From a virus (Duplodnaviria > Caudoviricetes): DNA of 64,000 nucleotides. This document shows, one piece after another, positions 2,783 through 50,286 of this stretch. The notes beneath the pieces are model-generated. The model searched no databases. It had not been told where the DNA came from and was given only the letters and a program-made list of their open reading frames with translations. How positions within the stretch are numbered: the stretch's first letter is position 1; each line of letters begins with the position of its first letter. The position numbers and the translations under genes were made by a program. The DNA lies in the IMG/VR virus record IMGVR_UViG_3300048923_000295, positions 1-64,000 of that record. One strand, written 5' to 3'.

Positions 2783-2933
2783 GATCGTAGGATAGCCGAT
2801 TCGGTTATACGACGAACGACGGACTCGCATGATCGGCCCATCGAACCCACAACCAGGCGCTATGCGGGACGATCTACGATTTCGTCGCGTCGCAGGATCT
2901 ACTAATTCGTAGGATTCGGTTATACTGGTAGGC
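2783..2933. promoter_or_regulatory. Lysis/lysogeny switch region
   Basis: Operator-like CTACGATTTCGTCG (2874-2887) and CTACTAATTCGTAG (2899-2912); direct repeat GATTCGGTTATAC (2798-2810, 2913-2925); TATACT 7 nt before GTG 2934. Confidence 0.75.
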
Positions 2934-9934: not shown

Positions 9935-9960
9935 ATACTACGAATTGGTAGATTCGTAGA
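9931..9960. promoter_or_regulatory. Operator-like site
   Basis: CTACGAATTGGTAG 9938-9951 in an AT-rich gap. Confidence 0.7.
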
Positions 9961-24250: not shown

Positions 24251-26536
24251 TCAAGCGGCGGCACCGGCCAGCCAGGCGGGCACCGTGTCCGGCGCCTTCG
24301 CGAAGCTCGGGCAGGCGGTCACGTCCAGCGCGTTCCGCGCCCGCGTCACTGCGACGTACAGGAGCATCAGCTCGTCCGCGTTGCCGTCGAGCTGGCCGGG
24401 CGGCGGGAAGTCCGCGGCGAGCTTCACCGTGTCCCACTCCAGCCCCTTGACGCAGTGCACGGTGCCCACCGTGACGTCCGCAGCCCGCAGGTCGGACAGA
24501 TCCGCCAGCCCCGCGATGATCGCCTCCGGGCCGAAGTCCTCGACCAGCTTCACGAGCAGCGCAATGTCACTGCCGAGCTCGTCGAACTCGCAGTTGTGGG
24601 AGAGCAGGCCCTCGGCGATGAAGGTGCGGGCGTCCGTACGTACAGCGACGACCTCGCGCTCTCCCACGTACTCGACATTGACGACCTTGGTCCGGGGGGT
24701 GCGGCCAATCTGGCGACGCTCCCACAAGCCTCCGGCCGCCGCGACTAGGCGCTCAGGGCGCGTAGTACCCAGCAGGCGCAGCTGCTCGGAGAGCCCTCCT
24801 CGTATGACAAGTTGCCGCACCTCGCTTGGGGCGCTGCCATGCGCGTAGTCGCCGAACTCGAAGCCTCGGTCCTTGAGCAAGGAACGAACCCGCTCAAGCA
24901 CCGGCCCCTCCTTCTGAGAGATTGACAAGTGACGGTTGCGGCTGCTCTCACCCCGGCAGCCAGCGGACCCCTCACCGTCGAACATGCCCGCCAACCAGCC
25001 GGCATCCTTGGTGTCTTCCTCCTCCCACCGCCCGAGAGTCAGGATCGGCGTGCCGGGCGAGAGCCGCTCCGTGTGCATCCAACGGAGGTTGTTGCCTTGC
25101 TGGACGATCCAGCGATGCTCGGCACTCGCTGTGACCGTGGTGCCGTCGTCCGTGGTGATGCGGTAGCACGGCCTAGTGATGGTCTTGACACTCTCCACGA
25201 CGGCCGTCCGATACCGGCGTCCTCGCGCATCCGCCGGCGTCTCCTCATCGAAACCTACGAGACGGTCGCCCGGCTCCAGAGTGTCAATGGTCTGCCAGCG
25301 AAGATCTGAGGTGAGCACTCTCGTCTCTGGCGCGAGACAGTAATCCTGCACCTGCCCCCACGTCGAGAAGCAGGACAGCTCCGGGTGCGCCGTCCACCCT
25401 TGGTCGCGGAGCTCGATCGCACCGCGGGCGAAGGAGACGACGGCCTGCGCCGTGTTCCCCACCAAGTGGACCTTCCTTCCGGCCTTCATCAGCGTCAGCG
25501 CCTCGGACACGGCCGTCGCATTGGTGCGGCAGAGGATCGCGTCGATCATCTCGCACGGGCCGATGTAACCGGCTTCGTCGTCGCTGCCGGGCCTGCCCTT
25601 GAGCCGCAGGGGGGTGTCGAGCTGGGCGAGGAGGGTGTTCGCGAAGTCGGCGAGGTCCTGACCGAACCGGAACGACTGGGACAGGTAGGCGGTGCGGTCG
25701 ACCTCGATGTTCTTGAAGGCGTCCAGGCAGCCGTTGAACGAGTTGATCGCCTGGGCCGAGTCGCCTACCAGTACCACGCGGCTGCCGAGCTGCATCTGCT
25801 TCTTGATGATCGAAAGCATGATCGGACTCATGTCCTGCGCCTCGTCGATCATGAGAATTTCGGCGCCGATCCACGGCATCCGCCGCACACCCGGCCGCGA
25901 CGGGTGCAGCCCCAGCTCCCACATCTTCAGGAAGTGCGCCGGGCTGTACGGCAGGACCCCGTTCGTCTTCTGCGCGTCCTCCCACGCACGGTTCAGCGCC
26001 GGGAGCATCCGCGCCCGGAGCATGTCGTTGGCCTTGTAGGTGCGCTTCCCAGTCGCCGAGTCGGGGGCGTCGATCCCGTCCACATACCGGAAATGGTCGA
26101 CACTGGGCGCCTCGGCGTCGGACTGGCAGAACCGGCCGAGCGCCCGCAGCACGTAGGACGCGAGCCACGCCGGACGCAGCGCCCGCGATCCCCCACCGAT
26201 CTGCGGCACCCACACCGGCTCGTTGATGCCGAGCGCCTTCGCGTTCTCCGCCGAGGTGCGCCGCACGTTCGACCGTCCGGAGAACTCCCGGCCGACCGCG
26301 TCGAACGCGAATCCGTGCATCGTCCGGACCCGCACGTTCCGGCCCATCTTGCCCTTCTGCTCCTGGCAGATGGCCTTGTTGAACGCCGTGTAGGCGACCC
26401 GCCGGTCCCGGTATTCGTGGGCGATCGCGCGGAGCACCGTCGACTTTCCGCAGCCTGCCCCGGCCTGGATGGCGAGGTGGCCGCCTTCAGCGAACAGGTC
26501 GATGGCCTTCTGCTGCTCGGGTGTGGGCTGGAACAT
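24251..26536 (-). CDS. UvrD/REP-family SF1 helicase with intein
   Basis: AGAGCGKS, YTAFNK, IDEAQD, LVGDSAQAI, LSQSFRFG, CRTNA, TVHCVKGLEW, YVAVTRA. Confidence 0.9.
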   Translation of the reverse strand: MFQPTPEQQKAIDLFAEGGHLAIQAGAGCGKSTVLRAIAHEYRDRRVAYTAFNKAICQEQKGKMGRNVRVRTMHGFAFDAVGREFSGRSNVRRTSAENAKALGINEPVWVPQIGGGSRALRPAWLASYVLRALGRFCQSDAEAPSVDHFRYVDGIDAPDSATGKRTYKANDMLRARMLPALNRAWEDAQKTNGVLPYSPAHFLKMWELGLHPSRPGVRRMPWIGAEILMIDEAQDMSPIMLSIIKKQMQLGSRVVLVGDSAQAINSFNGCLDAFKNIEVDRTAYLSQSFRFGQDLADFANTLLAQLDTPLRLKGRPGSDDEAGYIGPCEMIDAILCRTNATAVSEALTLMKAGRKVHLVGNTAQAVVSFARGAIELRDQGWTAHPELSCFSTWGQVQDYCLAPETRVLTSDLRWQTIDTLEPGDRLVGFDEETPADARGRRYRTAVVESVKTITRPCYRITTDDGTTVTASAEHRWIVQQGNNLRWMHTERLSPGTPILTLGRWEEEDTKDAGWLAGMFDGEGSAGCRGESSRNRHLSISQKEGPVLERVRSLLKDRGFEFGDYAHGSAPSEVRQLVIRGGLSEQLRLLGTTRPERLVAAAGGLWERRQIGRTPRTKVVNVEYVGEREVVAVRTDARTFIAEGLLSHNCEFDELGSDIALLVKLVEDFGPEAIIAGLADLSDLRAADVTVGTVHCVKGLEWDTVKLAADFPPPGQLDGNADELMLLYVAVTRARNALDVTACPSFAKAPDTVPAWLAGAAA
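24593..25339 (-). mobile_element. Intein (249 aa) with LAGLIDADG motif
   Basis: Starts CLAPETRVLT, TASAEHRW block B, WLAGMFDGEGS, ends FIAEGLLSHN followed by Cys +1. Confidence 0.9.
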
Positions 26537-26845: not shown

Positions 26846-27187
26846 ATGGCCCAGAAGACCTTCGTCAGCCTGGTCTGCGACATCACCGGGGAGGAGGCTG
26901 CCGAGACGGTGCGATTCAGCCTCGACGGCGCCCAGTACGAGATCGACCTGACCGGGCCGAGGGCGGACGAGCTTCGCGGCGCCCTGGCGCCGTTCATCAC
27001 CGCAGGACGCCGGCAGGGCGCGAAGCCGGCCCGACGTCGCAGTGGCGGCGCGACCGCGCCGAGGGCGACCAGCGGAACCGCGGACGTCCGCGAGTGGGCC
27101 CGCGAACAGGGAATCGAGGTGTCCGACCGGGGCCGGATCTCCCGGGAGATCCTCACCCAGTACGAGGCGGCACAGACCCCCGCCTGA
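26846..27187 (+). CDS. lsr2: Lsr2 nucleoid-associated protein / xenogeneic silencer
   Basis: MAQKTFVSLVCDI, TVRFSLDGAQYEIDL, VREWAREQGIEVSDRGRI. Confidence 0.95.
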   Translation: MAQKTFVSLVCDITGEEAAETVRFSLDGAQYEIDLTGPRADELRGALAPFITAGRRQGAKPARRRSGGATAPRATSGTADVREWAREQGIEVSDRGRISREILTQYEAAQTPA

Positions 27188-27210
27188 CCGGATTGGCCAG
27201 ATCGCGGTTT

Positions 27211-27224
27211 CTACTAATTCGTAG
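27211..27224. promoter_or_regulatory. Operator-like site upstream of the spd-tra module
   Basis: CTACTAATTCGTAG, identical to 2899-2912. Confidence 0.75.
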
Positions 27225-27414
27225 CCGCGTTATCATCGGGCGGCGTGCCGGACTGGTGCGCCGCCCGACACGGTGACTCCAACACCGGGCCGGACGACGA
27301 CTTGCACGTGTCCTAACAGGAGGACCGCGCCGTGCGTCATTTTGCCGTGCCCACGCTTCCGCGCACGTGGTTGGGCGTGTTGCGCCCGACCGTTACCGGT
27401 CTGGTGGCCGTCCG

Positions 27415-27603
27415 ATGAGCCAGGGCGACTTCATCGCGCTTCTGGTCCTGGGCGGAACATTCGGCCTCGCTGGGCTCTACCTGCGGGAGTTCCGCGCGGC
27501 CCTGGTCGTCGGCTTGATCTACGCCGGCGGATACACCGGCCTGCTGATCCTCAAGGCGGGGGGCCCCTGGTTCGAGTTCATCGTCTCCCTCCGAGCCGGC
27601 TGA
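27415..27603 (+). CDS. Small 2-TM membrane protein (Spd-like)
   Basis: Hydrophobic 62 aa. Confidence 0.65.
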   Translation: MSQGDFIALLVLGGTFGLAGLYLREFRAALVVGLIYAGGYTGLLILKAGGPWFEFIVSLRAG

Positions 27604-27606
27604 TCG

Positions 27607-29154
27607 ATGGCCGTCACCCCCGAGGTCATCGCTGCCCGCGCCGAAGCCGCCCTCGTGCTGGCCCAGGCCGACGAGACCCGTGCCGAGACGGCCCGGCGGG
27701 ACGATGCCGCCGCGGCCGAGCGGGCCCGGCTCGCCGAGGAGACCCGCGCCGACATCCGCCGCAAGGACGCCGCAGACCGGGACGCCCGCGCCCAGCGGGA
27801 GCGCGCGGACTGCCGAGCCCGCTGGAAACGCCGCCGCGCCGCCGTTGCCACCGTGCTCGGCCGGATCCGCGGGGACGCCGATGCTGCCGCAGCGATGACC
27901 GTCTACACCGCCGCCGTCGGCACCGCCCTCTACGGCCAGCTCACCGCCGCCCACGACCACGGCCTCCCCGCACCCATCGCGATCGCCGCCGCGGTCGCCC
28001 TGGAAGGCTGGGCGCTCGCCGCTGCCCGCACGGCCCTCCGGCTGCGCCTGGAGCACGGGGAGCGGGCGGTGCTGCCCCGGACGGCAATGGCGGTCGCCGG
28101 CGCCGTCGTCGCCGCGATCAACGTCGCCGGCCACTGGCCGCACGTCGTCACCGTCGATGGCGTCGCCACGCAGTCCGGCAGTCGGGCGACCGCGGTCATC
28201 CTCGGTCTCCTCTCCCTCGGCGCGATCACGATGTGGGAGCTGCGGTCCGGCGCCCGACACCGCCCGGCCCTACGCGCCCGCGGCCTGCTCGCCGAGCCGC
28301 TGCCGTGGCTCGGCCTGCGCTACTGGACCCGTTACCCGCTGCGCGCCTGGTGGGCCCGTTCGGCGTCCATCGCCGCGCCGTCAATCCGGACCCGCGCGGC
28401 AGCAATCCGCGCGGGCGAGCTGCTGCGCGCACTCCGCGCACAGGCCCGCGTCGATGCGCGGAACGCGCGCACGGCCGCGCGGCACCGCGCACAGGTCGCC
28501 CAGCTCGCGCGCGAGGCCGCGCGCGACGCCGCGAAGAAGGGCGCCGTGCAGGAGGCGCTCGCGCAGCTGCGCGCGTTTGCCGCGGCGAACGCGCTGCCCT
28601 TGGCCGCGCAGCCTCGCGCAGCCGTCCGCGCGGACGTGCGCGACGAGCCGGCCGACCCGCGCGAGGCCGCGCAGGAGACCGCGCTGGCCGCGCACCCGGA
28701 CGACGAGCCCGCGCGCCCCGCGCAGGACGACCGCGCGGACGCCGCGCACGACGAGGACCCGTTCGCGCACATCGCGCGCGACCTCGTGCACGTCGACGTC
28801 GACCTCGCACACCTGCGCGAGCCCGCGCGGACCAGCACACCCGTGCTCGCACAGCACGCCGTCGAGTTCGCCGCGCCGCCGCCCGCAGTCGAGCCGGCCC
28901 CGGACGACGACGACCTCACCGATGGCGATGAAGAGGAGCCGGCCGCGCCGGTCGACGACCTCGCCGCCCGCCGCGCGGAGAAGAACGCGGCGCTACGCGA
29001 CGAGGTGCGGGACCTCCTCGACCGGGGCAAGGCCGTATCGTCGCGCGCCCTCGGCCGCCAGTACGGCGTCGCCGAGTCGACCATGCGGGACCGGATCAAG
29101 CCGATCCGCGCGGAGTGGGAGGCGGAGCAGGCGGCCAGAGAGCGCACGGGATGA
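27607..29154 (+). CDS. SpdB-like multi-TM protein with C-terminal HTH
   Basis: Coiled coil, ~4 TM helices, C-terminal AVSSRALGRQYGVAESTMRDRI. Confidence 0.6.
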   Translation: MAVTPEVIAARAEAALVLAQADETRAETARRDDAAAAERARLAEETRADIRRKDAADRDARAQRERADCRARWKRRRAAVATVLGRIRGDADAAAAMTVYTAAVGTALYGQLTAAHDHGLPAPIAIAAAVALEGWALAAARTALRLRLEHGERAVLPRTAMAVAGAVVAAINVAGHWPHVVTVDGVATQSGSRATAVILGLLSLGAITMWELRSGARHRPALRARGLLAEPLPWLGLRYWTRYPLRAWWARSASIAAPSIRTRAAAIRAGELLRALRAQARVDARNARTAARHRAQVAQLAREAARDAAKKGAVQEALAQLRAFAAANALPLAAQPRAAVRADVRDEPADPREAAQETALAAHPDDEPARPAQDDRADAAHDEDPFAHIARDLVHVDVDLAHLREPARTSTPVLAQHAVEFAAPPPAVEPAPDDDDLTDGDEEEPAAPVDDLAARRAEKNAALRDEVRDLLDRGKAVSSRALGRQYGVAESTMRDRIKPIRAEWEAEQAARERTG

Positions 29155-29798
29155 TCCGCGTCGTCGCGCTCCTGGCCGGCGCGCTGTTCCTCCTCAGCTC
29201 GTTCGACGGCCCGACGCCCCGCCGCGCACCCGCGCGCGCGGGGCGTTCCAGTCCGAGCACCCGCGCGATGCTCGCCGGCAGCGCACGAGCATGGCGCGCG
29301 GCCACCCCGGCGGGCCGCCGCTGGCGTGCGCGCCGGCTCGCCGGGAACACCGCCCGCGCACTGCTCTGGCCGCGCGGTCGCGCAGCCGCCGCGCACCCGC
29401 CGCGCGGCCCGCGCGTCGACCTCACCCATCCCGCGCGACGCCGCGCACCATCCGCGCACCACCCGCGCGAATCGCAGCCGGCCGCGCGAGACCCGCACAC
29501 ACCACGAGGCGGAGGACCGTACATGGATCTCGTCAAATTCGCGCAAGCCACGGCCGCCGCCGGCCAGCTCGACCCCCCAGACGGCGGCCTGCCCGGCGTC
29601 CCCGACCAGGCCCGCGCATGGGCGCGCGCCATCGAGACGATCGCCGACGGCTACCTGGCATGGGTCGGGAGTCTCATTGAGGACGTCGGGCTCGCCCAGA
29701 AACCGCTCGAGCCCCTGCTCGACGCTGGCGACCTTCTCGTTGGTCTCGGCCCTGCGGTGGCCGCCGGGGCACAGCAGATCGCGGCTGGCCGGCGATGA
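29151..29798 (+). CDS. Hypothetical transfer-module protein
   Basis: N-terminal hydrophobic segment; coupled to neighbours. Confidence 0.5.
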   Translation: MIRVVALLAGALFLLSSFDGPTPRRAPARAGRSSPSTRAMLAGSARAWRAATPAGRRWRARRLAGNTARALLWPRGRAAAAHPPRGPRVDLTHPARRRAPSAHHPRESQPAARDPHTPRGGGPYMDLVKFAQATAAAGQLDPPDGGLPGVPDQARAWARAIETIADGYLAWVGSLIEDVGLAQKPLEPLLDAGDLLVGLGPAVAAGAQQIAAGRR

Positions 29799-31822
29799 GC
29801 AGCCCGCGCGACCGCGCGTTCGCGCGCGAACTGCGCCGCGCAGAGGGTGCGCGACGTCGCGAGCAGGCCGCGCAGCGCCGCGCGGATCTGCGCGACCGTC
29901 GCGCGGGTGGTGCGCAGCCGCGCGCACGCCCGGACCGTTCGCGCACTGTCGCCCGCGCATCACGCGACCGGCCCGCGCAGAAACCGCGCGAGCGTCGCGC
30001 ACCCGCCGCGCGGGCCCTGCGCGAACCGCGCACGGCCCGCGCAGGCAACCCGCTGCGCCGCGCACGCCGCGCGGCCTACCGCACCCGTCACGCGCTCGCC
30101 CCGGCCTGGTGCGCGGTCGGCGTCGCCCTCGTGGCGTGGGGCCTGCGCGGCCTGCTGCCCGCCTGGCTCGCCGTGTGCGCGGTGCTGCTACTGCTCGCCG
30201 CGGCGGATGTGCGGATCGCGCGGGACTCGCGCACCCTGCGCGCGCACCGCGCGGGCGTTCTGCTCGCGGCGGCCGCCGCGGCGTGGGCCTGCTGGGTGGT
30301 CGTCGCCGGCTTCGGCCAGCTCCAGGCGGTCGCGCTCGCACTCGCGACGCTGGCCATGTGGCCGTCGTGGTGGCGATCCCACCGGGTACGCCGCGCCCGC
30401 GCGGCCAGCCGGTTCGAGCAGGCATGGGCGTGGGCCGCCGCCGACCTCGGCCTCCGCGCCGAACTCCGCGGCACCATCCCGGGCGAGGTGGACGGCCAGT
30501 GGTCCCACCCGGTCGACCTGAACGGGGACACAGTCGACCGGCTCCGCGGGGCGCTCGGCGACCTCGAAGCGGTCCCGGCGCTGCGTCTGCGCCGTGGCGC
30601 GCTCCGCGTCGACGACGTGCCGGCGGACGCCTCCCGGGCGGTGCTCCACGTCGTTGCCGTCGACCCGCTCACCTCCGCCCCGGACGTGCCGGCCGGCGAT
30701 GACGAGGGTATCCCGTGGCCGGGCCCGGACCCGGCCGCCGGCCCGGACGACCCGATCGCCGTGGGCCTGTACGAGGACGGCGGCCCGATCGAACTCGGTC
30801 TAGATCAGCACATCCTCTTGGTTGGCGGCACTGGCGCCGGGAAAGGCACACTCCTCAAGATCCTTATTGGGAACGCTCTAGCTCGCCGCGCGCTGAAGGT
30901 GTGGGGAATCGATTTCAAGGGCGGCCGGCTCCTCACGCCGTGGGGCCGGTGCATCGCCAAGGCCGTGACGAACGCCGACGGCTACGGACCAGGTATCGAA
31001 CAGGCGCGGGCTCTTCTCGCGGGGGCCCTCGCCGAGGTCGACCGCCGCGCCGCCGCCGGTGCGGTGTCCGGCCTCGACGGGCACGTGGCGACGGAGCGGG
31101 ACCCGCACATCATTCTGATCATCGATGAGGCTGAGCGGGTCCTCGACGACCCGGACTGCCTCTATCTGATCAACGAACTGTCGGACGTGGCCCGCTCCGA
31201 ACGGATCACCCTCGTGATCACGGTTAAGCGCCCGACCGCCGACAGCACCCGCGGCGGACGGCTTTCCAGCAACATCAAAACCCGAGTGCTGCTCGGCTCC
31301 CGCGAGAACAAGCAGGATCTTCGGGGCGCTCTGCCTGGCGGCATCACGTTCCCCGTCGAGGTGCTCGACCGGCCGGGGAAGGCAGCGATCTACCGGCACG
31401 GCCAAGCCGCGGCCCGTCCCGGCCGCATCTGGCTGCCCTCCGTCGCCCAGGTCGCCGAGCTCCGCGCCGCCTACGAGCCGGCCGAAACAGCGCCCGCGAT
31501 GTCGACAGACCCCGAAAACACCCCCGAGAACGCCGTTTCGGGAGCTCTGTCGACATCCGAGGCCGCTATCACGACCACCCCGGTGCCGTCGGGGCCGCCG
31601 TCGCCCGCGCTCGCCCTGGAGCTCATCACCGCCACGGGCACCGAGGGCATCCGCGCCAAGGATCTGAAGCCTCTGGGTCAGTGGGGTTCGACCACCACCA
31701 TGTACGAGCACCTCGCCCAGCTCGGCGAGGACGAGGAGAAAGGCCGGGCCGCACAGGTCGTGAGCGTGAATCGCCGCTGGTACGCCGTTGAGCATGCCCC
31801 GGATGGGCCGCGGCCAGCGTGA
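29795..31822 (+). CDS. TraB-like FtsK/SpoIIIE DNA translocase
   Basis: N-terminal TM helices, Walker A GGTGAGKG, IDFKGG, Walker B ILIIDEA, C-terminal wHTH-like segment. Confidence 0.8.
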   Translation: MSSPRDRAFARELRRAEGARRREQAAQRRADLRDRRAGGAQPRARPDRSRTVARASRDRPAQKPRERRAPAARALREPRTARAGNPLRRARRAAYRTRHALAPAWCAVGVALVAWGLRGLLPAWLAVCAVLLLLAAADVRIARDSRTLRAHRAGVLLAAAAAAWACWVVVAGFGQLQAVALALATLAMWPSWWRSHRVRRARAASRFEQAWAWAAADLGLRAELRGTIPGEVDGQWSHPVDLNGDTVDRLRGALGDLEAVPALRLRRGALRVDDVPADASRAVLHVVAVDPLTSAPDVPAGDDEGIPWPGPDPAAGPDDPIAVGLYEDGGPIELGLDQHILLVGGTGAGKGTLLKILIGNALARRALKVWGIDFKGGRLLTPWGRCIAKAVTNADGYGPGIEQARALLAGALAEVDRRAAAGAVSGLDGHVATERDPHIILIIDEAERVLDDPDCLYLINELSDVARSERITLVITVKRPTADSTRGGRLSSNIKTRVLLGSRENKQDLRGALPGGITFPVEVLDRPGKAAIYRHGQAAARPGRIWLPSVAQVAELRAAYEPAETAPAMSTDPENTPENAVSGALSTSEAAITTTPVPSGPPSPALALELITATGTEGIRAKDLKPLGQWGSTTTMYEHLAQLGEDEEKGRAAQVVSVNRRWYAVEHAPDGPRPA

Positions 31823-31843
31823 TCTATGCTAGCCGGCTAGCTT

Positions 31844-32617
31844 ATGATGGAGGCGAGCATGGTTGACCGCGGCGACGGCCGGCACACCTACGAATCGATC
31901 GCGTGGGACATCCGCGGACGGATCGGCCGCGGCGATCTCCGTCCAGGTGACCCGATCCCCAGCCTCCCCGCGATACAGCGGGACTTGAAGGTCTCGAACC
32001 AGACGGCGCAGGCTGCGGTCCGGCTCCTGAAATCGTGGGGGCTGGTCGAGGGGAAGTCGGGGCTTGGGACCTTTGTGCGCGAGCTTCGTCCCATCGTCCA
32101 CGTCATGACGGACATGACCGTTCCCGGTCCCGCCGGGAAGCGGCGCACCTGGCGCGAGATCGTGTCCGAGTACGGCATGGTGGGCGCTCAGCAGGTCACC
32201 GGAGCTGGCCGGACGCCCGCACCTGCGGACGTCGCAGAGGCGCTGGGGATCGCCGCGGAAGCCCCGGTGGCATGGCGCCAGAGGCTCCTCTTGGCCGATG
32301 GTCGCCCCATCATGATCTGCTCCTCGTACTACCCGGACGCCATAGCCGACGTCGTGCCAGCGCTCGCCGAGCCCGCACGGCTGCCCTCCAACGCAATGGA
32401 GTTGATGGCCCGCGTAGGCCACGCAATCGTCCCCGGCGGCCGGGACACCGTCTTCGGCCGCGCCGCGACAGCGGAGGAAGCGGCCCAGCTCGGGGCGCAG
32501 GCCGGCGCGCCGGTCACCGAGACGTTCCGAGTGGCGTATGACGCAGACGGGTTGGTGGTCCTCGTAGAAAGGATGGTCGCGGACGGGCTGCGGCTCCGGC
32601 AGGTCTGGCGGTTCTGA
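31844..32617 (+). CDS. GntR-family regulator with UTRA domain (KorA/TraR-like)
   Basis: YESIAWDIRGRIGRGDLRPGDPIPS...VSNQTAQAAVRLLKSWGLVEGKSGLGTFVR. Confidence 0.9.
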   Translation: MMEASMVDRGDGRHTYESIAWDIRGRIGRGDLRPGDPIPSLPAIQRDLKVSNQTAQAAVRLLKSWGLVEGKSGLGTFVRELRPIVHVMTDMTVPGPAGKRRTWREIVSEYGMVGAQQVTGAGRTPAPADVAEALGIAAEAPVAWRQRLLLADGRPIMICSSYYPDAIADVVPALAEPARLPSNAMELMARVGHAIVPGGRDTVFGRAATAEEAAQLGAQAGAPVTETFRVAYDADGLVVLVERMVADGLRLRQVWRF

Positions 32618-40528: not shown

Positions 40529-40552
40529 CCCCGCAGCGACCCGAGGTGACCC

Positions 40553-41764
40553 GTGGCCGGTCCCTCGGCCCCGAAGTGCGCCGCGATCACCCTCAAAGGG
40601 CTGCCGTGTAAGAACAAGGCGAAGTACGGGCCCTACTGCGGCGTCCACAAGAACTACAGCGGTAAGGCCGCAGCGAAAGCCGCGGCAGCCCCGAAGCTCG
40701 CGCACCTCGCGGGGAAAGCGAAGCCGACCGCGACCCACCCGCCCGCGGCCCCGGACGCAGACCCGTTCACCCCCACCGGCCTGTCCGTCCTGGACGCCGC
40801 GCCAGACGCTTTCAATCTCCCTGCCACGGTCTCCTCGGCCGACGTGGCCCCCTACCGGCCGTCGGGGGCGAAGAAGACCGTCGGCGCCTACCTCCGCCGG
40901 CTCGACGCGGATCCGAATGCCAAGGCGCAGACGAAGACCAAGCTGGCCGCGCACGCCGATGGTCTCGTGCACCTCGACGCGGACGGCAAGGCGACGCTCA
41001 CCCCGAAGGGGCAGGCGATCGCCGCCGCCCTCGCCCAGCCGAAGAAGAAGCCGACGCTCGCCGCGCTGAGCGGGAAGACGCCCACCCCGGCTCTCCCGCA
41101 TCACGGCGGGACCGCGCCGCTTCATACCGGCCCGTGGTGGTCGAAGGATGCCGCCAAGCCTAAGAGCCTCGCCGAGTTGCTGGCCAGCAACGCCCCCATC
41201 GTGGGATCCGCGAACCTCGCAACCTATTTCGATCATGTGATGTCGCACGGGAAGTACACCGACGCCCACAGGAACGCGACCCGCGCCTACTCGGGTCCCG
41301 CATACGGCCACATCAACGCCAACCTCAGGGCGGGCACAGCCGTTCCGGCCAGCAGCCAAGTCACGATGAAAAACCTTGACTCGGCATTCGAGGCCACACC
41401 TCCACTCGACCGTCCTGTCCACGTCAGTCGAGGAGTGAAGGGCGTCGCCGGAGTGTTTCCCGACCTTGCCCCGGGGACGATGTACACCGATCCCGGGTTC
41501 ATGTCGACGAGCCGGGACAGAACAACCGCGGAATCGTTCTCCGGTTACACCGACCCGGGGATCATCACCCTTCGGGTGCCGGCCGGTGCGCGAGCCATCG
41601 CGATGACCAGCCCATCACCCCCGAACCTACCCTCGAACCTGCCCGGCGAAGGCGAGATTCTGCTTCCCCGGGATAGCTCGATCAGGATCCGGCATGTTAC
41701 CATCAAGAATGGTAGGACGTATATCGACGCCGAACTCATCGTCGCGGGGGTTAACGATGGCTAG
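40553..41764 (+). CDS. ADP-ribosyltransferase (VIP2/C3-like R-S-E), paralog 1
   Basis: AYSGPAYGHINANLR, VSRG, GFMSTS, EGEILLPR; N-terminal C-x8-C-x8-C-xx-H. Confidence 0.88.
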   Translation: MAGPSAPKCAAITLKGLPCKNKAKYGPYCGVHKNYSGKAAAKAAAAPKLAHLAGKAKPTATHPPAAPDADPFTPTGLSVLDAAPDAFNLPATVSSADVAPYRPSGAKKTVGAYLRRLDADPNAKAQTKTKLAAHADGLVHLDADGKATLTPKGQAIAAALAQPKKKPTLAALSGKTPTPALPHHGGTAPLHTGPWWSKDAAKPKSLAELLASNAPIVGSANLATYFDHVMSHGKYTDAHRNATRAYSGPAYGHINANLRAGTAVPASSQVTMKNLDSAFEATPPLDRPVHVSRGVKGVAGVFPDLAPGTMYTDPGFMSTSRDRTTAESFSGYTDPGIITLRVPAGARAIAMTSPSPPNLPSNLPGEGEILLPRDSSIRIRHVTIKNGRTYIDAELIVAGVNDG

Positions 41765-42076: not shown

Positions 42077-42121
42077 CACCCGCCCGCGGGCCGCTCGCCC
42101 GCATCCCCGTAGTGAGGCGTC

Positions 42122-43276
42122 ATGGCCTCACACGGGCCGAAGTGCGCCGCGATCACCCTCAAAGGGCTGCCGTGTAAGAACCGGGCCCGGCCAGGCTCCC
42201 CCTACTGCGGCGTCCACAAGAACTACAAGGGCGGCCAGCACGCCGCCCAGGCGGCCGCCGCCCCGAAGCTCGCGCACCTTGCGGGGAAGGCGAAGCCGAC
42301 CGCGACCCACCCGCCCGCGGCCCCGCCAACACCAGCAGCGCCCCCACCGGCCGCCCAGGCCATCCCGCACGACCTCGACGCCACCCCCTACCGGTCCAGC
42401 GGCCCGAAACGCACCGTCGGCGCCTACATCAGCCGCCTCGCCGCCGACCCGAAGGCCCGCGCGCAGACGAAGACGAAACAGGCCGCCCTCGACGACGGTC
42501 TCGTGCACACCGACCCGTCGGGCAGCCTGGTCCTCACCCCGAAGGGCCATCAGCTCGCCGGCGAACTCGCCATGAAACCGAAACCGAAGCTGGCCGCGCT
42601 CGCCAAGCCGAAACCGGTCGGCCCGCTACCCGCTGCCGTGGCCGCCGCCCAGAACACCCCGAAGCCGCCACCGAAGGGCGCCCCGCCGCCGCTGCTCGTC
42701 CCGGGCGCGGTCCACGGCCAGGACGACGTCATCGCCTACATGACCGGCCACTCGAAGGCGGTCAGTTACACCGCCCAGCATCGAATGGCGACCCGCACCT
42801 ACACCACCCCCGTCTACCGGGAAATCAACGGCAACCTTCGTCACGGAAGCTGGGCGTCGCCTGCCGCGCAGAAGGCCATCGCCGGCCTCGACTCGGCGCT
42901 CCAAGCCACCCCACCACTCGACAAGCCGGTGATCACCCAGCGGGGTATCCGCTTCTACCGCGACGTCCTCGGCGACGTGAAAGTCGGCGACACCATCCAC
43001 GACAAAGGTTTCATGTCGACGTCGGTGGACCGGAACCACGCCTACTACTACGCGACGAAACGCGGCCACGCCAACCAGGCCGCCCTGATGAACATCACCA
43101 TCCCGCCAGGAGTGCGCGCGCTCAGCATCCTCCCACCGGCCCCGCCGAACCTCCCCCCGAAATATGGCACCGAACATGAGGTGCTGCTGCCCCGCGGCAC
43201 GTCCCTGCGGGTCGACCGGATCGTCCGCAACGCGCAGGGCGTCACGTTCATCGACGCGACCGTGGTCCCCGCCTGA
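42122..43276 (+). CDS. ADP-ribosyltransferase, paralog 2
   Basis: TYTTPVYREINGNLR, TQRG, GFMSTS, EHEVLLPRG; N-terminus nearly identical to paralog 1. Confidence 0.88.
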   Translation: MASHGPKCAAITLKGLPCKNRARPGSPYCGVHKNYKGGQHAAQAAAAPKLAHLAGKAKPTATHPPAAPPTPAAPPPAAQAIPHDLDATPYRSSGPKRTVGAYISRLAADPKARAQTKTKQAALDDGLVHTDPSGSLVLTPKGHQLAGELAMKPKPKLAALAKPKPVGPLPAAVAAAQNTPKPPPKGAPPPLLVPGAVHGQDDVIAYMTGHSKAVSYTAQHRMATRTYTTPVYREINGNLRHGSWASPAAQKAIAGLDSALQATPPLDKPVITQRGIRFYRDVLGDVKVGDTIHDKGFMSTSVDRNHAYYYATKRGHANQAALMNITIPPGVRALSILPPAPPNLPPKYGTEHEVLLPRGTSLRVDRIVRNAQGVTFIDATVVPA

Positions 43277-43318: not shown

Positions 43319-43861
43319 GTGCCTGCGGTGAGCCCCTACACGCCCACGAGCGAGGTCCAGGTGCCCCGCCGTGAACCGTCCAAGGGCCGTCGCCCGCGCG
43401 CTGGCGCAACGTTGTCGGACCAAGAACGCGCGCGGATCGCGGAGCTCCACGGCGAGGGGCTCGGCTGCTCCGAGATCGCCCGCCGGATCGGCCGCGACCC
43501 GTCGACCGTCTCGCGTGCGGCGAAGAAGCTCGGGCTGTCCTTCGCCCGGGAGGCCACGAAGGCCGCCACCGAGGCCCACCAGGCCGACATAGCCGCGGAG
43601 CGGGCCCAGCTCGCCAGGGACCTCCTGGGCGACGCTCAGCGCCTGCGAGAGCGTGCCTGGTCGGAGTACAAGGTCGTCACATCGGGCCCGCAGGGCGCGG
43701 AGATCACCGTGCTTGAGCTGCCCCCGCTCGGCGACGTCCGGAACGCCTATGCCTCGCTGGGGATCTGCGTCGACAAGGTCAAGGTCATCACGGACGCGGA
43801 CCGTGACCCGGTCGGGATGTCGGCGGTTGACGCCTGGTTGCGCGGAATCACCGGCGGATGA
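43319..43861 (+). CDS. Terminase small subunit (HTH)
   Basis: GLGCSEIARRIGRDPSTVSR; overlaps the terL start. Confidence 0.7.
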   Translation: MPAVSPYTPTSEVQVPRREPSKGRRPRAGATLSDQERARIAELHGEGLGCSEIARRIGRDPSTVSRAAKKLGLSFAREATKAATEAHQADIAAERAQLARDLLGDAQRLRERAWSEYKVVTSGPQGAEITVLELPPLGDVRNAYASLGICVDKVKVITDADRDPVGMSAVDAWLRGITGG

Positions 43862-45147
43862 TCGTTCAATCGCTTGTCGCGAAACAGATCCAGTCGTACC
43901 GGCTCGCGGATGCTCGGCTCAACATCTGGGACGGCACGGTCCGATCGTCGAAGACCATCACCAGCCTGTTGCGGTGGATCGAGTTCGTGAAGGACGCCCC
44001 CCCGGGCAACCTGCTTATGGTCGGGAAGACCGAGCGGACCCTGCGCAGGAACATCATCGACGTGATGGTCGACATGCTCGGCCGTTCACGCTGCAAGCTC
44101 ATCGCCGGATCTGGTGAACTCTGGCTCCTCGGCCGTCGGATCTACCTCTGCGGGGCAGCCGACGAGCGGGCGCAGGAGAAAATCAGAGGTCTCAGCCTCC
44201 AGGGTGCCTACTGTGACGAGCTGACCACCTACCCCGAGTCGTTCTTCTCGATGCTCCTCACTCGCCTGTCCGGCGACGGCATCCACCCCGCCCGCTGCTA
44301 CGGCACGACCAACCCTGACGGCCCCCGGCACTGGCTTAAGATCAACTATCTGGACAAGGCGAAGCTCCACCTCACCCTGGACGGCGAGCTACGCCACAGC
44401 GACGACCCGGACGCGCTCGACCTCCACCGCTTCTCCTTCCAACTCAAAGACAATCCCGCGCTGTCACCGGACTACGTCAAGGCGCTGGAGAAGGAGTTCG
44501 TCGGCCTCTGGCGGAAACGCTTCATCCTCGGGATGTGGGTGCTCGCCGAAGGCAGCGTCTACGACATGTTCGACCCCGAGGTCCACGTCGTCGACGAGAT
44601 CCCGACGATCACCCGCTACGTGGCCCTCGCCGTCGACTACGGCACCCGGAACCCGTTCCACGCCGGCCTCATCGGCCTGGGCGTCGACCGCAAGCTGTAC
44701 GTCATGGCCGAGTGGCGCCACGACTCGCTGGCGGCCTTCCGGCAGATGTCCGACACCGAGTACGCCACCGCGATCCAAGACTGGCTCGCCAGCATCCCCA
44801 TCCCCGGCACGAGCCTGCGAGGCGTCCGGCCCGAGTGGACCTGTGTCGACCCGTCGGCCGCCTCGTTCATCGTCGAGCTCTACAACCGGGGCATCACCGC
44901 GGCGAAGGCGAACAATGATGTCCTCGACGGGATCCGGCTCATCTCGTCCCTGTTCACGAACCGGCAGCTCCTCATTCACCGGTCTTGCCGGTGGCTGGTA
45001 GATGAGCTGGTCGGATACTGCTGGGACGATAAAGCGGCCATGGTCGGTGAAGACAAACCCATCAAGCAGGCCGACCACGGGCCGGACATGTTGCGTTACG
45101 GGCTTCTGACCACTCAGGCGCTTTGGCAAGGCCAGATCGCGGCCTAG
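43858..45147 (+). CDS. terL: Terminase large subunit (PBSX-like)
   Basis: GTVRSSKT, CDELT, TTNPDGP, VDYGTRNP, DPSAA, DHGPDMLRY. Confidence 0.93.
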   Translation: MIVQSLVAKQIQSYRLADARLNIWDGTVRSSKTITSLLRWIEFVKDAPPGNLLMVGKTERTLRRNIIDVMVDMLGRSRCKLIAGSGELWLLGRRIYLCGAADERAQEKIRGLSLQGAYCDELTTYPESFFSMLLTRLSGDGIHPARCYGTTNPDGPRHWLKINYLDKAKLHLTLDGELRHSDDPDALDLHRFSFQLKDNPALSPDYVKALEKEFVGLWRKRFILGMWVLAEGSVYDMFDPEVHVVDEIPTITRYVALAVDYGTRNPFHAGLIGLGVDRKLYVMAEWRHDSLAAFRQMSDTEYATAIQDWLASIPIPGTSLRGVRPEWTCVDPSAASFIVELYNRGITAAKANNDVLDGIRLISSLFTNRQLLIHRSCRWLVDELVGYCWDDKAAMVGEDKPIKQADHGPDMLRYGLLTTQALWQGQIAA

Positions 45148-45222
45148 GGATTTGACCGGAAGTTGTGCCGGTTGTCGCAGACTTACAGGACCCCGGCAAT
45201 AGAATCGAACACGTAAGCGAAC

Positions 45223-46203
45223 ATGCGCCCCGGGAAGCGGACGGCAATCCGCCCCCGGGACTTCGAGACACCTTCTACGGAGGTGCCCCGCGTGGGCGAT
45301 CGTACCTGCTCCGTCCCCGGCTGCGCCGGCAAGTACAAGGCCGCCGGGCTGTGCATCATGCACTACGAACGCAAGCGGAAGAACGGCACGACCGATCCGA
45401 AGCAACCGCCCGCCCCTCGCCGCATGGTCGAGGGGCGGCGCGTCTGCGCGGTCGAGACCTGTACCCGCAAGTACGGCGCCGCCGGCTACTGCCGCCGTCA
45501 CCACGAGCTTCTGCGAGACACCGGGTCGCTGACCGATCCGCGAGACGAAGGTCGGCGAGAGCCGCGGATCTTCGACGGCGTGCGTCGCTGCGAGTTCGAG
45601 TCCTGCGACGGGAAGTATCTCGCTAAGGGCTACTGCGCGAAGCACTACCAGCGGTCCGTCGATGGCAGACCGATGGAAGACCCCACCCCCCGAACACCCC
45701 AGGAGCGCCACGCAGCCCGGTTGGCAGCCGGGCGACGCTACTACGAGCGCAACAGGGAGTCCGAGCTCGCGAAGAACAGGGAATATAGGGCACGTAACCG
45801 TGAACGACTGAACGCCGCCTCTCTGGAGTGGCACAAACGCAACCCTGGACGGAACGCCGAGAACACGCGCAGGTGGCGCGAGGCCAATCCGGAGCGAGTC
45901 GCGCAACGCAACAGCGAATGGTACGCCCGCAACCCGGACTGGTCGCGCACTAAGTCTGGCCGCCGTCGAGCGATGAAGCTCGCGACACAGGTCGAGCCGG
46001 TCGACTACGCGGTCATCCTCGAACGGCACGGAATGCAGTGCCACATCTGTAAGGCCCCGATCGAGTCGAAGGCCGTGCTGCACTTCGATCACGTCGTTCC
46101 GCTTGTCCGGGGCGGCACGCACACCTACGACAACATCAAGCCAGCCCACTCTCGGTGCAACCTGAGCAAGCACGCGAAGCTGCTTCCCGCCGAAGCAGGG
46201 TGA
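45223..46203 (+). CDS. Free-standing HNH endonuclease with three Zn-finger repeats
   Basis: 3x C-x4-C-x9-C-xx-H; CHIC, DHVVPLVRGGTHTYDNIKPAHSRCNLSK. Confidence 0.88.
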   Translation: MRPGKRTAIRPRDFETPSTEVPRVGDRTCSVPGCAGKYKAAGLCIMHYERKRKNGTTDPKQPPAPRRMVEGRRVCAVETCTRKYGAAGYCRRHHELLRDTGSLTDPRDEGRREPRIFDGVRRCEFESCDGKYLAKGYCAKHYQRSVDGRPMEDPTPRTPQERHAARLAAGRRYYERNRESELAKNREYRARNRERLNAASLEWHKRNPGRNAENTRRWREANPERVAQRNSEWYARNPDWSRTKSGRRRAMKLATQVEPVDYAVILERHGMQCHICKAPIESKAVLHFDHVVPLVRGGTHTYDNIKPAHSRCNLSKHAKLLPAEAG

Positions 46204-47575: not shown

Positions 47576-47853
47576 TCGGTCGGCTCTTCCCAGTCGTTGA
47601 TCGGCTCCCAGATCCCGCACTCGATCATCGCGAGCGCGTCGGAGATCGACACGGTGTCGTGCTGCGGCAGGTAGCCCCGCATTTCGGGCTGCCGCTCGAT
47701 GACGAGCCTCCCGGCCGGGTCGCAGCGTTCCAACGTGATCGTGCAGGCCGGGTCGCTGTCCTCGTAGCTGGCGCCCGGTAGTCCTCCTCGGTAGGTAAAC
47801 CGAGCCCCGGTGAAAAGAACCGGCTGTCTCGCAAAAGTTTTCACGTCACCCAT
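47572..47853 (-). CDS. Hypothetical protein (reverse cassette)
   Basis: First gene of the unit. Confidence 0.5.
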   Translation of the reverse strand: MGDVKTFARQPVLFTGARFTYRGGLPGASYEDSDPACTITLERCDPAGRLVIERQPEMRGYLPQHDTVSISDALAMIECGIWEPINDWEEPTE

Positions 47854-47889
47854 CGTATCCCACTGTCCGACACTTTCGGGAGGGCCCGC

Positions 47890-50286
47890 GTGCCTCTCCC
47901 CGATGGCAGCATCCCTTGGCCCCCACCCCACCTCGCCCGGCCGTTCGGCGAGATGGACCGGCTCGCCGCCTGGTGGGAAGGCGACCCGGAGAAGCTGTCC
48001 GCGGTCTACGGCGGCACCGCCGGCGGCACCACCCAGACCTCCCCGTCCAGCGAACGCTCATTCGAGCGGCCCGCGCAGTACCGCGGCGGTGTCGTCGGCG
48101 CCGTCGCCCGCTGGTTCTGGGGCCAGCCGACGAGCCCGCAGCAGCAGCGAACCAAAGTCCACGTCCCCCTCGCCAGCGAGATCGCCAGCGCCTCCGCCGA
48201 CCTCCTGTTCAGCCGGGCGATCACCGTCACCTGGGGCGACGAGGCCGCCCGCCGCGCAGACCGTGACGCGGCCGTCCAAGACGCCCAGGACCTCGCCGAC
48301 CAGCAGGCCGCCGACGACCACGCCGCGGCGATGGACGACGCCGGTGTCGACCCGGACGACCCGGCCCTGGCGAACCCGATCACCGGCGAGCCCCCGCAGC
48401 CGCCCAAGGCCGACCCCGTCGACGCCCCGGACGTCCCCCCGGACCCGGCGCAGCTCCGCTTCGACCAACTCCGCGAAGCCAGCATGCTCGACGCGACGCT
48501 TCTTGAGGCAGCCGAGATCGCCGCCGCCATGTCCGGCGTCTACCTGCGTCTGGTGTGGGACGAGGAACTCCAGGACGGCCCGTGGATCGACATCGTCCAC
48601 CCCGACAGCGCGGTGCCGGAGTGGCGCTACGGCCGCCTGTGGGCGGTGACGTTCTGGCGTGAGCTGGTGAGCTCGGACGAGTCCCAGAACCGCGGCAAGG
48701 TGATCCGCCATCTCGAACGGCACGAGCGCGGGCAGATCCTGCACGGCCTGTACGAGGGCGACCGGGACAACCTCGGACGCGCGATCCCCTTGTCCGAGGC
48801 GCCGGACCTTGAGGGGCTGGTCGAGTCCCTCGAAGACGGAAACAAGATCGCCACCGTTGAGGGGCGCCTGACCGCCTGCTACGTGCCGAACATGCGCCCC
48901 GCCCCGCAGTGGCGCCGCCTGCCGCAGCTCGCCCCCCTCGGCCGCTCCGACTACACCCCGCCCGTTCTGGCCCTCATGGACCAGTTGGACGAGGTGATGA
49001 CGAGCTGGATGCGCGACATCCGCCTCGGTAAGGCCCGGATCCAGGTGCCCGAGAGCTACCTGGAAACCCAGGGGCGCGGCAAAGGGGCGCTGTTCGACGA
49101 GGACCGTGAGGTCTACACGACGCTGGCGATGCTGCCAACGCCCGCCGGCCCGCCGCAGATCACGGCGACACAGTTCGCGATCCGCGTCGACGAGCACGAG
49201 CGGACCGCCCGGGCGTTGATGGACGCGATCGTCCGCGGCGCCGGCTACAGCTCGCAGACGTTCGGCAGCGACGCTGAAGGCGCCGGCGCGACGACCGCGA
49301 CCGAGATCAACGCCCGCGAAAAGCGCAGCGTCATGACCCGCGAGAAGAAGATCCGCTACTGGGACAACGCCCTGTCGGACCTCTTCTACACGTGGCTCCT
49401 CCTCGACGCCGCCCTCGCCGGCGTGAAGGCCGCACCGCCGGCCGCGGACACCGAACCGAAGCCCGGCCAGCCCCAGCCCGGCGATGCCCCGGCCGAGCCT
49501 GGGAAGGGCACGGGCACCGACGGGAAGAAGCCCGTCTTCGGGAAACAGGCCGAACCAGCGCCCGGCCCGCCCGGCACGAAGCCGACCCCCGGCGACGCGA
49601 AGACCCCGCCTGCGGGCAAGGGCAAGCCGTTCAGCCAGCAGGGCCAAGACGACACCGCCCAGCCCGCGGGGAAGCGCCGTCCGTTCGGCAAGGGCAAGGC
49701 GGGCGCTCCGCCGTTCGGGCAGAAGCCGGCCAGCGCCCAGCCCGGCGACGCGCAGGACGGCCAGACCCCAACCGGCGCTCCACCCGCACCAGCCGGCAAG
49801 GCCGGTGGCCGGTCGGGTCCGACGCTCGGCGCTCTCGCCCGCACCGCCCAGCAGCCCACCGACCCGAACGCCGATCCGCAGGCGGACGAGCAGGACCCGA
49901 ACGCCGCCCTCGACCCCAACGCCCCCGCAGCCCCGGTCATCCCCGACGGGCCGCCGGAGCTGTCCTGGCCGGCGCTCGCCGACGCCGACCAGCTGACCCT
50001 GGCACAGACCGCGCAGGCGATTTTCGCCGCCTCGGCCGCCAGCAAGTACACCTTGGTCAAACTCCTCCACCCCGACTGGGACGAGGACCAGATCCAGGAC
50101 GAACTCGCCCGCATGGACGAGGACACCAAGGCCGCGGCGCCGGCGCCCGACCCGATGTCCATGGGCGCCGAACAGCCCCTCGGCGGCGCTCCGTTCGGGC
50201 AGGACCCGATGGACGACGGCACGGGCAACCAGGGCGACTTCGGACAGGACGACGGCAGCGGCGACGGCGGGGTGCCCTTCCAGTGA
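47890..50286 (+). CDS. Portal protein (SPP1-like) with long low-complexity insertions
   Basis: KVHVPLASEIASASADLLF, YVPNMRP, LGRSDY, SWMRDIRLGKAR, TATEI. Confidence 0.9.
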   Translation: MPLPDGSIPWPPPHLARPFGEMDRLAAWWEGDPEKLSAVYGGTAGGTTQTSPSSERSFERPAQYRGGVVGAVARWFWGQPTSPQQQRTKVHVPLASEIASASADLLFSRAITVTWGDEAARRADRDAAVQDAQDLADQQAADDHAAAMDDAGVDPDDPALANPITGEPPQPPKADPVDAPDVPPDPAQLRFDQLREASMLDATLLEAAEIAAAMSGVYLRLVWDEELQDGPWIDIVHPDSAVPEWRYGRLWAVTFWRELVSSDESQNRGKVIRHLERHERGQILHGLYEGDRDNLGRAIPLSEAPDLEGLVESLEDGNKIATVEGRLTACYVPNMRPAPQWRRLPQLAPLGRSDYTPPVLALMDQLDEVMTSWMRDIRLGKARIQVPESYLETQGRGKGALFDEDREVYTTLAMLPTPAGPPQITATQFAIRVDEHERTARALMDAIVRGAGYSSQTFGSDAEGAGATTATEINAREKRSVMTREKKIRYWDNALSDLFYTWLLLDAALAGVKAAPPAADTEPKPGQPQPGDAPAEPGKGTGTDGKKPVFGKQAEPAPGPPGTKPTPGDAKTPPAGKGKPFSQQGQDDTAQPAGKRRPFGKGKAGAPPFGQKPASAQPGDAQDGQTPTGAPPAPAGKAGGRSGPTLGALARTAQQPTDPNADPQADEQDPNAALDPNAPAAPVIPDGPPELSWPALADADQLTLAQTAQAIFAASAASKYTLVKLLHPDWDEDQIQDELARMDEDTKAAAPAPDPMSMGAEQPLGGAPFGQDPMDDGTGNQGDFGQDDGSGDGGVPFQ

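Follow-up and report, generated by a model that had tools for sequence, protein, structure and literature searches.

What would a DNA-transfer operon of the plasmid type do inside a prophage that encodes its own virus particles? This question is raised by a provirus record of the IMG/VR database (IMGVR_UViG_3300048923_000295; Duplodnaviria, Caudoviricetes; 80,937 bp in total), of which we analyzed bases 1-64000 (hereafter the window; G+C content ~71%). At 27332-32617 of the window, a single co-directional and translationally coupled operon on the + strand encodes small membrane proteins, a predicted DUF2637/SpdB-like protein, an FtsK-family motor and a GntR/UTRA regulator. A preliminary description of this region had regarded these genes as a TraB/Spd/GntR module of the type found on plasmids and in the integrative and conjugative elements of actinomycetes (AICEs), and this assignment was borne out by the TraB profile match and tree of the motor, the DUF2637 domain of the membrane protein and a regulator that is ~30% identical to plasmid counterparts. 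In our opinion, there is about an even chance that this is a TraB/Spd-type double-stranded DNA (dsDNA) translocation operon of a temperate prophage lineage of Frankia-type hosts, by which phage DNA would spread between hyphal compartments or hyphae after derepression. The phage may also spread without virus particles, for which Streptomyces plasmid-phages provide precedents from the laboratory.

The motor (675 aa) is a membrane-anchored FtsK-family translocase with the full architecture of TraB. Hydropathy places its hydrophobic transmembrane (TM) segments at aa 110-186, and residues G349 and K350 of Walker A and D444 of Walker B were invariant, and E445 nearly so, in a 50-member alignment. 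The AlphaFold2 model (mean predicted local distance difference test score, pLDDT, of 82.9) comprised TM helices, an FtsK-type alpha/beta motor and a disordered linker, followed at aa 604-664 by a helix-helix-helix-strand-strand unit (pLDDT ~88-92). We consider this C-terminal unit a putative winged helix, a call made from the secondary structure of the model only; a phmmer search with the C-terminal 81 aa against PDB sequences gave no match. The best structural match of the motor was that of E. coli FtsK (Z 29.0, root-mean-square deviation 3.3 over 336 residues; Foldseek E 4.5e-19), and the second was the conjugative coupling protein TcpA (Z 27.9). Thus, the FtsK-type ATPase with TM helices and a tail resembling a winged helix-turn-helix (HTH) that had been noticed previously was recovered in each of its parts, the last one in the predicted structure.

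The Pfam FtsK_SpoIIIE match of the motor was weak (2.7e-4, below the gathering score), and its best NCBIfam model was plasmid_TraB (55.9 bits, E 2.7e-15, ATPase region only). In a single-protein search, no locus related to the motor was found in genome or viral contigs; a profile of its six closest proteins matched 12,833 proteins at E <=0.001, with 182 below 1e-30, and among those listed most were 550-720 aa long and covered nearly end to end. Plasmid_TraB was also the best NCBIfam model, and the commonest family, for all 50 full-length relatives that were sampled. A profile of these 50 relatives spanned ~25-600 of 608 positions on the TraB proteins of our plasmid comparison set (pJV1, NC_001759.1; a 14-kb element of S. 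longwoodensis, NZ_CP108973.1) and on two phage proteins, gp10 of Streptomyces phage Gilgamesh and gp71 of Abt2graduatex2, which share the full-length TraB-like architecture with the motor (profile positions 32-601 and 22-595 of 608, respectively). On Frankia chromosomal FtsK and on EccC, the same profile covered the ATPase core only (~249-504). Gilgamesh is also temperate and has a membrane-protein gene adjoining gp10, as in the present element.

We reconstructed a maximum-likelihood tree of the ATPase core only (quick search, 46 rows, rooted on Frankia FtsK). The five Frankia-prophage motors formed one clade (Shimodaira-Hasegawa-like approximate likelihood ratio test, SH-aLRT, 97) that was nested in a TraB-like clade (87) and, within it, in a 13-row subclade with two plasmid TraBs (93). 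EccC, FtsK and a mycobacteriophage FtsK-like protein fell outside the TraB-like clade, the mycobacteriophage protein being near chromosomal FtsK. Thus, both the tree and the end-to-end profile match group the motor with plasmid TraB and not with chromosomal FtsK or EccC, and the clustering with non-conjugative FtsK proteins that had been regarded as fatal to the original proposal was not observed. In addition, the FtsK/SpoIIIE genes of five Streptomyces 'plasmids' of 129-133 kb in PLSDB (CP108533.1, NZ_CP108441.1, NZ_CP070374.1, NZ_CP107821.1 and NZ_CP122459.1) match the motor about as well as does gp10 of the 129-kb temperate phage Gilgamesh, and these molecules may be phage-plasmids or extrachromosomal Gilgamesh-type prophages.

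The second component that is typical of transfer modules is an SpdB-like protein. The 515-aa protein has 3-4 hydrophobic segments at aa 120-212 and no direct Pfam, PHROG or NCBIfam match. Over aa 87-248, it shares 40% identity (E 2e-27) with a Micromonospora protein, exactly over the DUF2637 stretch of the latter, and that stretch passes the Pfam DUF2637 model (E 4.3e-7; 30.4 bits, with a cut-off of 22.8). Its neighbours in the ESM Atlas, by features and by structure, are DUF2637 clusters, and some lower-ranked neighbours carry SpdB_N and HTH_SpdB_C (score 0.81-0.82), which we take as a lead. Orthologues in related prophages are 49-51% identical and gave faint matches only to a C-terminal HTH (E 0.008-0.1). 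Homology thus identifies the 515-aa product as a predicted DUF2637/SpdB-like membrane protein. A direct comparison with the 'DUF2637' protein of the S. longwoodensis element was uninformative, and the latter also fails the local Pfam copy. When the DUF2637 domain was compared by tblastn, nothing was found in 50,697 phage records, and two weak matches appeared among plasmids, on Streptomyces plasmids of 129 and 153 kb. A complex prediction for the TM region of the motor and the DUF2637 domain scored 0.00, which is evidence neither way.

No family match was obtained for either of the other two membrane proteins. The 62-aa protein has two helices, and in Frankia sp. AgB32, which carries a related prophage, its position is occupied by a poorly conserved open reading frame (ORF). 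The 215-aa ORF has an N-terminal hydrophobic helix, an internal ribosome-binding site (RBS) and ATG at ~29533, and ATGA overlaps at both ends; compared with AgB32, all of its internal indels are multiples of three, and the start and overlaps are kept. The membrane genes reported in the preliminary description were therefore all seen again.

The features of the operon and its control region are listed in Table 1. Three gene junctions are ATGA start/stop overlaps, and the same translationally coupled organisation is known for spd operons (Thoma et al. 2015; PMC4447253).

Table 1. Genes and candidate control sites of the transfer-type operon, with genes called from third-position G+C, translation and alignment to the AgB32 locus.
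Position	Strand	Feature	Basis
2898-2912	+	Switch operator (reference copy), located between the repressor gene and the divergent Cro-like gene	Pattern match
27210-27236	+	Candidate promoter/operator: operator (TCTACTAATTCGTAG, 27210-27224), then -10-like TATCAT	Match to switch operator
27238-27268	+	Hairpin (CGGGCGGCG ... CGCCGCCCG), start of 5' leader	Both arms kept in AgB32
27332-27418	+	28-aa ORF with strong RBS AGGAGGA and ATGA overlap with next gene; putatively coding	ORF and peptide kept in AgB32
27415-27603	+	62-aa protein with two hydrophobic helices, Spd-like small membrane protein	Translation, hydropathy
27607-29154	+	515-aa predicted DUF2637/SpdB-like integral membrane protein with Ala/Arg-rich helices and C-terminal HTH-like tail	Homology to DUF2637 protein
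29151-29798	+	215-aa ORF with an N-terminal TM helix, a linker rich in Arg, Pro and Ala, and 88 conserved aa at the C-terminus	AgB32 alignment, hydropathy
29795-31822	+	TraB-like FtsK-family dsDNA translocase of 675 aa with a basic N-terminus, TM helices, motor, linker and putative winged helix	Profiles, tree, AlphaFold2 model
31844-32617	+	GntR/HutC-type regulator (winged HTH and UTRA), 22 nt 3' of the translocase gene	Pfam

The left end of the record, whose class is provirus, is a tyrosine integrase (frame 1-1515, minus strand; PF00589), and a CI/Cro-type switch follows, in which an HTH repressor gene (2369-2782, minus) is divergent from an HTH Cro-like gene (2934-3317). The right part of the window encodes a large terminase, an HNH endonuclease, a portal, a protease and minor and major head proteins, and the last 17 kb of the record encode a tape measure, tail proteins and an endolysin. 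Therefore, the element is a virion-encoding temperate tailed phage of a siphovirus-like lineage, and the earlier placement of the block inside such a prophage, with a single integrase, was correct. Close relatives of the studied genes were found only in Frankia sp. AgB32, Parafrankia sp. EUN1f and further assemblies, and the portal in the AgB32 genome is 89% identical to that of the window. The same DNA occurs in root metagenomes, and near-identical fragments are present on contigs of two other soil/root metagenomes, in which the joints had sides of 20-24 nt throughout, so that none is trustworthy. Judged from these relatives and from the root and soil sources, it is most likely that the host is a Frankia-type actinomycete.

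The operon is preceded by a copy of the putative switch operator. A 14-mer (CTACTAATTCGTAG) occurs exactly at 2899-2912, between the repressor and Cro-like genes, and again at 27211-27224, and the identity of the two copies, as read from the sequence, extends to 15 nt (TCTACTAATTCGTAG). Variants with small changes are located at 9938, 15623 and 34551. These five pattern matches compare with 0.00 expected from 100 shuffles, and the exact copy before the operon that had been pointed out earlier was seen again. At four of the five sites (2899, 15623, 27211 and 34551), a gene on the + strand starts just downstream. We consider these sites as predicted repressor operators overlapping early promoters, and the motor operon would thus be off in the lysogen. 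When the window is compared with AgB32, conservation is higher in the 5' leader (27238-27415) than in the first small membrane gene; the leader holds a perfect hairpin with a 9-bp stem and the 28-aa ORF. The hairpin is a candidate terminator of the upstream Lsr2 gene or a leader element, and the leader could be a regulatory or cis-acting site. An Rfam scan of 20-36 kb gave no match, and a scan for consensus promoters and terminators at 26.5-33 kb gave nothing useful. The Lsr2 gene itself (26846-27187), whose product has a dimerisation and a DNA-binding domain, is the immediate upstream neighbour of the operon and is kept in AgB32, and the presence of this xenogeneic-silencer homologue beside a CG-rich module may have a bearing on the regulation of the module.

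Whether the block was inserted separately or inherited with the phage was examined by synteny. The AgB32 locus is collinear with the window over 22.8-31.5 kb, including the helicase and Lsr2 genes, and its collinearity is interrupted only by a 757-bp stretch in the helicase gene that is present in the window only. This UvrD/SF1-type helicase gene (24251-26536, minus) gave faint LAGLIDADG and intein-splicing Pfam matches at aa ~445-648, and the stretch absent from the AgB32 orthologue (window 24583-25340) is, on this sequence evidence, probably a homing intein found only in this phage. Five relatives have intact module genes, and the block is intact and collinear in related Frankia/Parafrankia prophages. 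The ratio of nonsynonymous to synonymous substitution rates (dN/dS) against AgB32 was 0.41 for the motor and 0.64 for the DUF2637 gene, and the motor gene is under purifying selection. The block is not flanked by direct repeats other than the operator copies at 27211 and 34551. Throughout the 80.9-kb record there is no second integrase and no resolvase (PF00589 matches the left-end integrase only), and no match to Prim-Pol, RepSA- and RepAM-type genes not having been searched for; to this extent, the earlier statement that neither a second integrase nor an AICE replication gene is visible was upheld. Because of the collinearity in AgB32, the lack of flanking repeats, the single integrase and the lack of a Prim-Pol, we conclude that the block is not a separately inserted AICE, an alternative that the preliminary description had left room for, and that it is an inherited part of the early region of the phage. 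Separately, a different contig of the AgB32 genome (C155, ~20.3-29.5 kb) contains another, divergent TraB-like gene and, ~8 kb from it, a GntR/UTRA gene; the two probably belong to an ordinary AICE in the same genome.

The base composition of the module had been taken as a hint of a separate origin. The segment is indeed strikingly rich in CGCG and GCGC, with 105-135 per kb at 28.0-30.5 kb against a window mean of 31 (standard deviation 18), an approximately fourfold excess, and the ratio of observed to expected occurrences is 2.3-2.9 there, compared with 0.93 in the window. However, the orthologous segments are likewise rich (98-99 per kb in AgB32 and 119 per kb in EUN1f). The proteins encoded by the stretch contain 21-26% Ala and 13-20% Arg, and synonymous shuffling within genes reproduced ~80-85% of the CGCG enrichment. 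Since the richness is conserved in orthologues and mostly driven by Ala and Arg codons, it is a lineage trait of the module and not a mark of recent foreign origin, and that part of the preliminary description could not be maintained.

Two hexamers, CCGCGC and CGCGCA, exceed the synonymous shuffles (z 4.3-5.8; 4.3-4.8 for CCGCGC). CCGCGC is ~8-fold enriched over 2.5 kb and strand-biased, with 54 occurrences on the + strand and 23 on the other, and its pair distances peak near 10, 21, 31, 42, 52 and 63, a spacing of ~10.5 bp. The synonymous-shuffle null shows this spacing too (p ~0.09, not significant), and for this reason we attribute it mainly to the helical periodicity of the Ala/Arg-rich proteins and not to a DNA signal.

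If the operon works as we propose, the phage repressor would hold it off in the lysogen together with the early lytic operons, and it would be expressed upon induction or infection, at a time when the DNA of the phage is excised and replicates. A TraB hexamer would dock on the phage DNA by its winged helix and work with the SpdB-like channel protein, moving phage dsDNA across septal cross-walls to neighbouring compartments and perhaps also to hyphae in contact. In this way, no extracellular virion stage would be needed for infection or lysogeny to spread. The GntR/UTRA protein, which among the prophages compared only this phage encodes beside its motor, would probably add ligand-dependent control, as plasmid TraR/KorA does for traB. 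The shared operator suggests that the operon is silenced together with the lytic genes, which fits spread after derepression better than AICE-style mating of a stable lysogen. A more specific version, in which a pump under the immunity operator serves as a virion-free infection route and the CCGCGC words over spd-traB are perhaps a docking signal for the winged helix or the SpdB-like HTH, is tentative, and we see it as possible with the doubt prevailing.

On the other hand, several points weigh against the proposed spread of phage DNA. The 55.9 bits of the motor do not reach the 800-bit equivalog cut-off of NCBIfam plasmid_TraB, so that the motor is TraB-like and not an equivalog of the Streptomyces plasmid protein, and tblastn with the motor against 72,556 plasmids and 50,697 phages gave no match at 1e-5; taken together, the low score and the lack of matches make it a distant relative of plasmid TraB. 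The tree supports for its placement among TraB proteins are moderate (below 95). No discrete clt-like array of direct 8-bp repeats, the kind of cis-acting site to which the TraB winged helix binds, was found. Binding of the 14-mer by the repressor is a prediction, and the 14-mer may instead be a promoter element. AgB32 lacks the 19 nt that hold the operator at this site, with the TTATCAT/TTATGAT element and the leader being kept; this loss would fit a different immunity specificity of that phage. If expressed in lytic growth, the operon might just as well have an intracellular function. Transfer, expression and DNA binding of the module are all inferred from sequence.

A first alternative is AICE-style conjugation by the lysogen, in which the prophage would be excised at low frequency, TraB would move the circular dsDNA to a non-lysogenic hypha, integration would follow, and the GntR protein would act as in kil-kor systems. 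All components of the module match those of plasmid and AICE transfer modules, a single integrase would serve both excision and integration, Frankia genomes contain AICEs with Tra proteins (PMC3218068, PMC2440964), and pZL12, a plasmid-phage, transfers conjugally (as cited in PMC3583192). The product of 31844-32617 matched GntR (E 1.9e-12) and UTRA (E 3.5e-18) in Pfam, in agreement with its earlier identification as a GntR/UTRA regulator, and is 30-31% identical over its full length to the GntR regulators of pJV1 and the S. longwoodensis plasmid (TraR/KorA-type). However, its gene is co-directional with the motor gene and not divergent as in the kil-kor type, and no GntR ortholog was found beside the motor gene in AgB32 or EUN1f. 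The Micromonospora phage/integrative plasmid pMLP1 (CP058906.1), which is related to the window by its terminase (47% identity), portal (41%), minor head protein (37%) and GntR/UTRA protein (31%), has no TraB-like gene by profile search in six frames. The GntR gene is therefore not a fixed part of the module, nor is it tied to the pump in this phage group. The HutC operator pattern GTNTANAC occurred at chance level only, and a scan of short inverted repeats for a HutC-type operator returned CG-rich coding palindromes only. Moreover, given the operator held in common with the lytic switch, the operon would be expected to be silent in a stable lysogen, a Prim-Pol replication gene of the AICE type was not found, and an 80-kb substrate is far above the typical size of AICEs. 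For these reasons, conjugation by the lysogen appears unlikely.

An intracellular lytic role seems improbable to a similar degree. Here, the motor would handle phage or host DNA within the infected compartment, e.g., clear or segregate DNA at septa, resolve replicated genomes or retrieve DNA from closing cross-walls, and nothing would be passed to other cells. Operator control indeed points to expression during lytic growth, and the motor gene lies in the early/replication region adjoining the helicase and Lsr2 genes. FtsK-like genes also occur in Streptomyces phages of 126-134 kb that we take to be strictly lytic, and to which conjugation by a lysogen is thus unlikely to apply. Among the phage records of GenBank, 106 of Streptomyces and 52 of Mycobacterium, these large phages included, carry the annotation of an FtsK-like translocase. 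However, a coupled operon with a DUF2637/SpdB-like channel and small membrane proteins is the signature of a spread module (PMC4447253), and in the tree the motor falls with conjugative TraB, the mycobacteriophage protein being near chromosomal FtsK. Finally, it is very unlikely that the block is a captured AICE fragment from which the lysogen profits, with a membrane ATPase that acts on entering DNA in superinfection exclusion or in defence, or a decaying cargo. Arguments for it are that phage proteins resembling FtsK/SpoIIIE are classed as morons in PHROGs, that ATPases of the HerA/FtsK type are known from defence systems and that one family member is matched by HerA anti-phage models. However, at least five relatives keep the genes intact and in collinear order, the motor shows a dN/dS of 0.41 and keeps the full TraB architecture with its putative DNA-binding winged helix, and the operator argues against expression in the lysogen.

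The reading that we prefer, spread of phage DNA by a TraB/Spd-type operon after derepression, can be compared with several known systems. The Streptomyces TraB-Spd-TraR loci (pSVH1, pJV1, pSN22 and pSAM2), by which plasmids pass dsDNA from hypha to hypha, are alike in having a single membrane-anchored FtsK-like motor with a C-terminal winged helix, a coupled operon with DUF2637/SpdB-type and small membrane proteins (PMC4447253), a GntR/HutC regulator (~30% identity) and a mycelial actinomycete host. In contrast, the present module lies inside an 80.9-kb virion-encoding prophage with neither a Prim-Pol nor its own integrase, we identified no homologue of TraA and no discrete clt array, the GntR gene is downstream and co-directional, the promoter carries the predicted phage immunity operator, and the motor is very diverged. 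The S. longwoodensis element, for example, contains a divergent GntR gene, small proteins, a DUF2637 protein, TraA, TraB, a Prim-Pol and an integrase.

The plasmid-phages pZL12/phiZL12 and pFP4 resemble the present element in that tailed-phage particle genes and tra-type transfer are found on one DNA molecule, a likeness taken from descriptions of these plasmid-phages. The former was reportedly described by Zhong et al. in 2010 (J Bacteriol 192:3747) and the latter reportedly by Chen et al. in 2012 (Plasmid 68:170), and pFP4 is assumed to be maintained extrachromosomally like pZL12. The latter is an extrachromosomal plasmid (PMC7157519), whereas the present element appears to be an integrated provirus with a tyrosine integrase, a CI/Cro-type switch and a Frankia-type host. 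The tra function of pZL12 has been characterised, as cited in PMC3583192, PMC4487206, PMC7157519 and PMC6950372. Homologues of Spd are also present on the phages phiC31 and VWB, for which Thoma et al. proposed a role in spreading phage DNA (PMC4447253). Besides these, an FtsK-like/SpdB2 homologue is annotated as gp108 of Streptomyces phage Wofford. None of the FtsK-like/SpdB2 genes of actinophages showed close similarity to the motor or the DUF2637 domain of the window (tblastn, 50,697 phage records), and in the literature searched, no phage-borne TraB or Spd gene was reported as experimentally tested.

Phages with TraB/Spd modules are thus already documented by pZL12, pFP4 and the annotated FtsK-like phage genes, and what the present instance adds is the probable host of Frankia type, the apparent integration as a prophage and the link to the predicted immunity operator, and no new principle. 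If phage DNA does spread in the proposed way, tailed phages of mycelial actinomycetes would have a second, contact-dependent and capsid-free route, which would change models of infection, lysogenisation and gene flow in hyphal bacteria. The operator wiring predicts that the pump is silent in the lysogen and switched on at induction. Frankia has been hard to manipulate genetically, and a native integrase-att system together with a dsDNA transfer module might be a possible starting point for genetic tools.

Several other features were noticed in the window. The segment 20963-21996 contains GGY-NN pentamers repeated in arrays and, three times in tandem, a unit of ~141-147 bp with tRNA T-arm-like sequence, for which ARAGORN and Rfam gave no match. 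In the middle region of the phage, the gene at 37181-38131 matches a tRNA-His guanylyltransferase PHROG (Thg1-like; E 3.8e-29). Just upstream of the terminase genes are two tandem paralogous ADP-ribosyltransferase-like genes (40550-41764 and 42116-43276) with DNA stretches of 73-79% identity at their 5' ends. At 43831-46203, the large terminase gene (43831-45147) is directly followed by the HNH endonuclease gene (45217-46203). The portal gene (47782-50286) is unusually long, encoding 834 aa, of which the portal profile spans aa 40-548.

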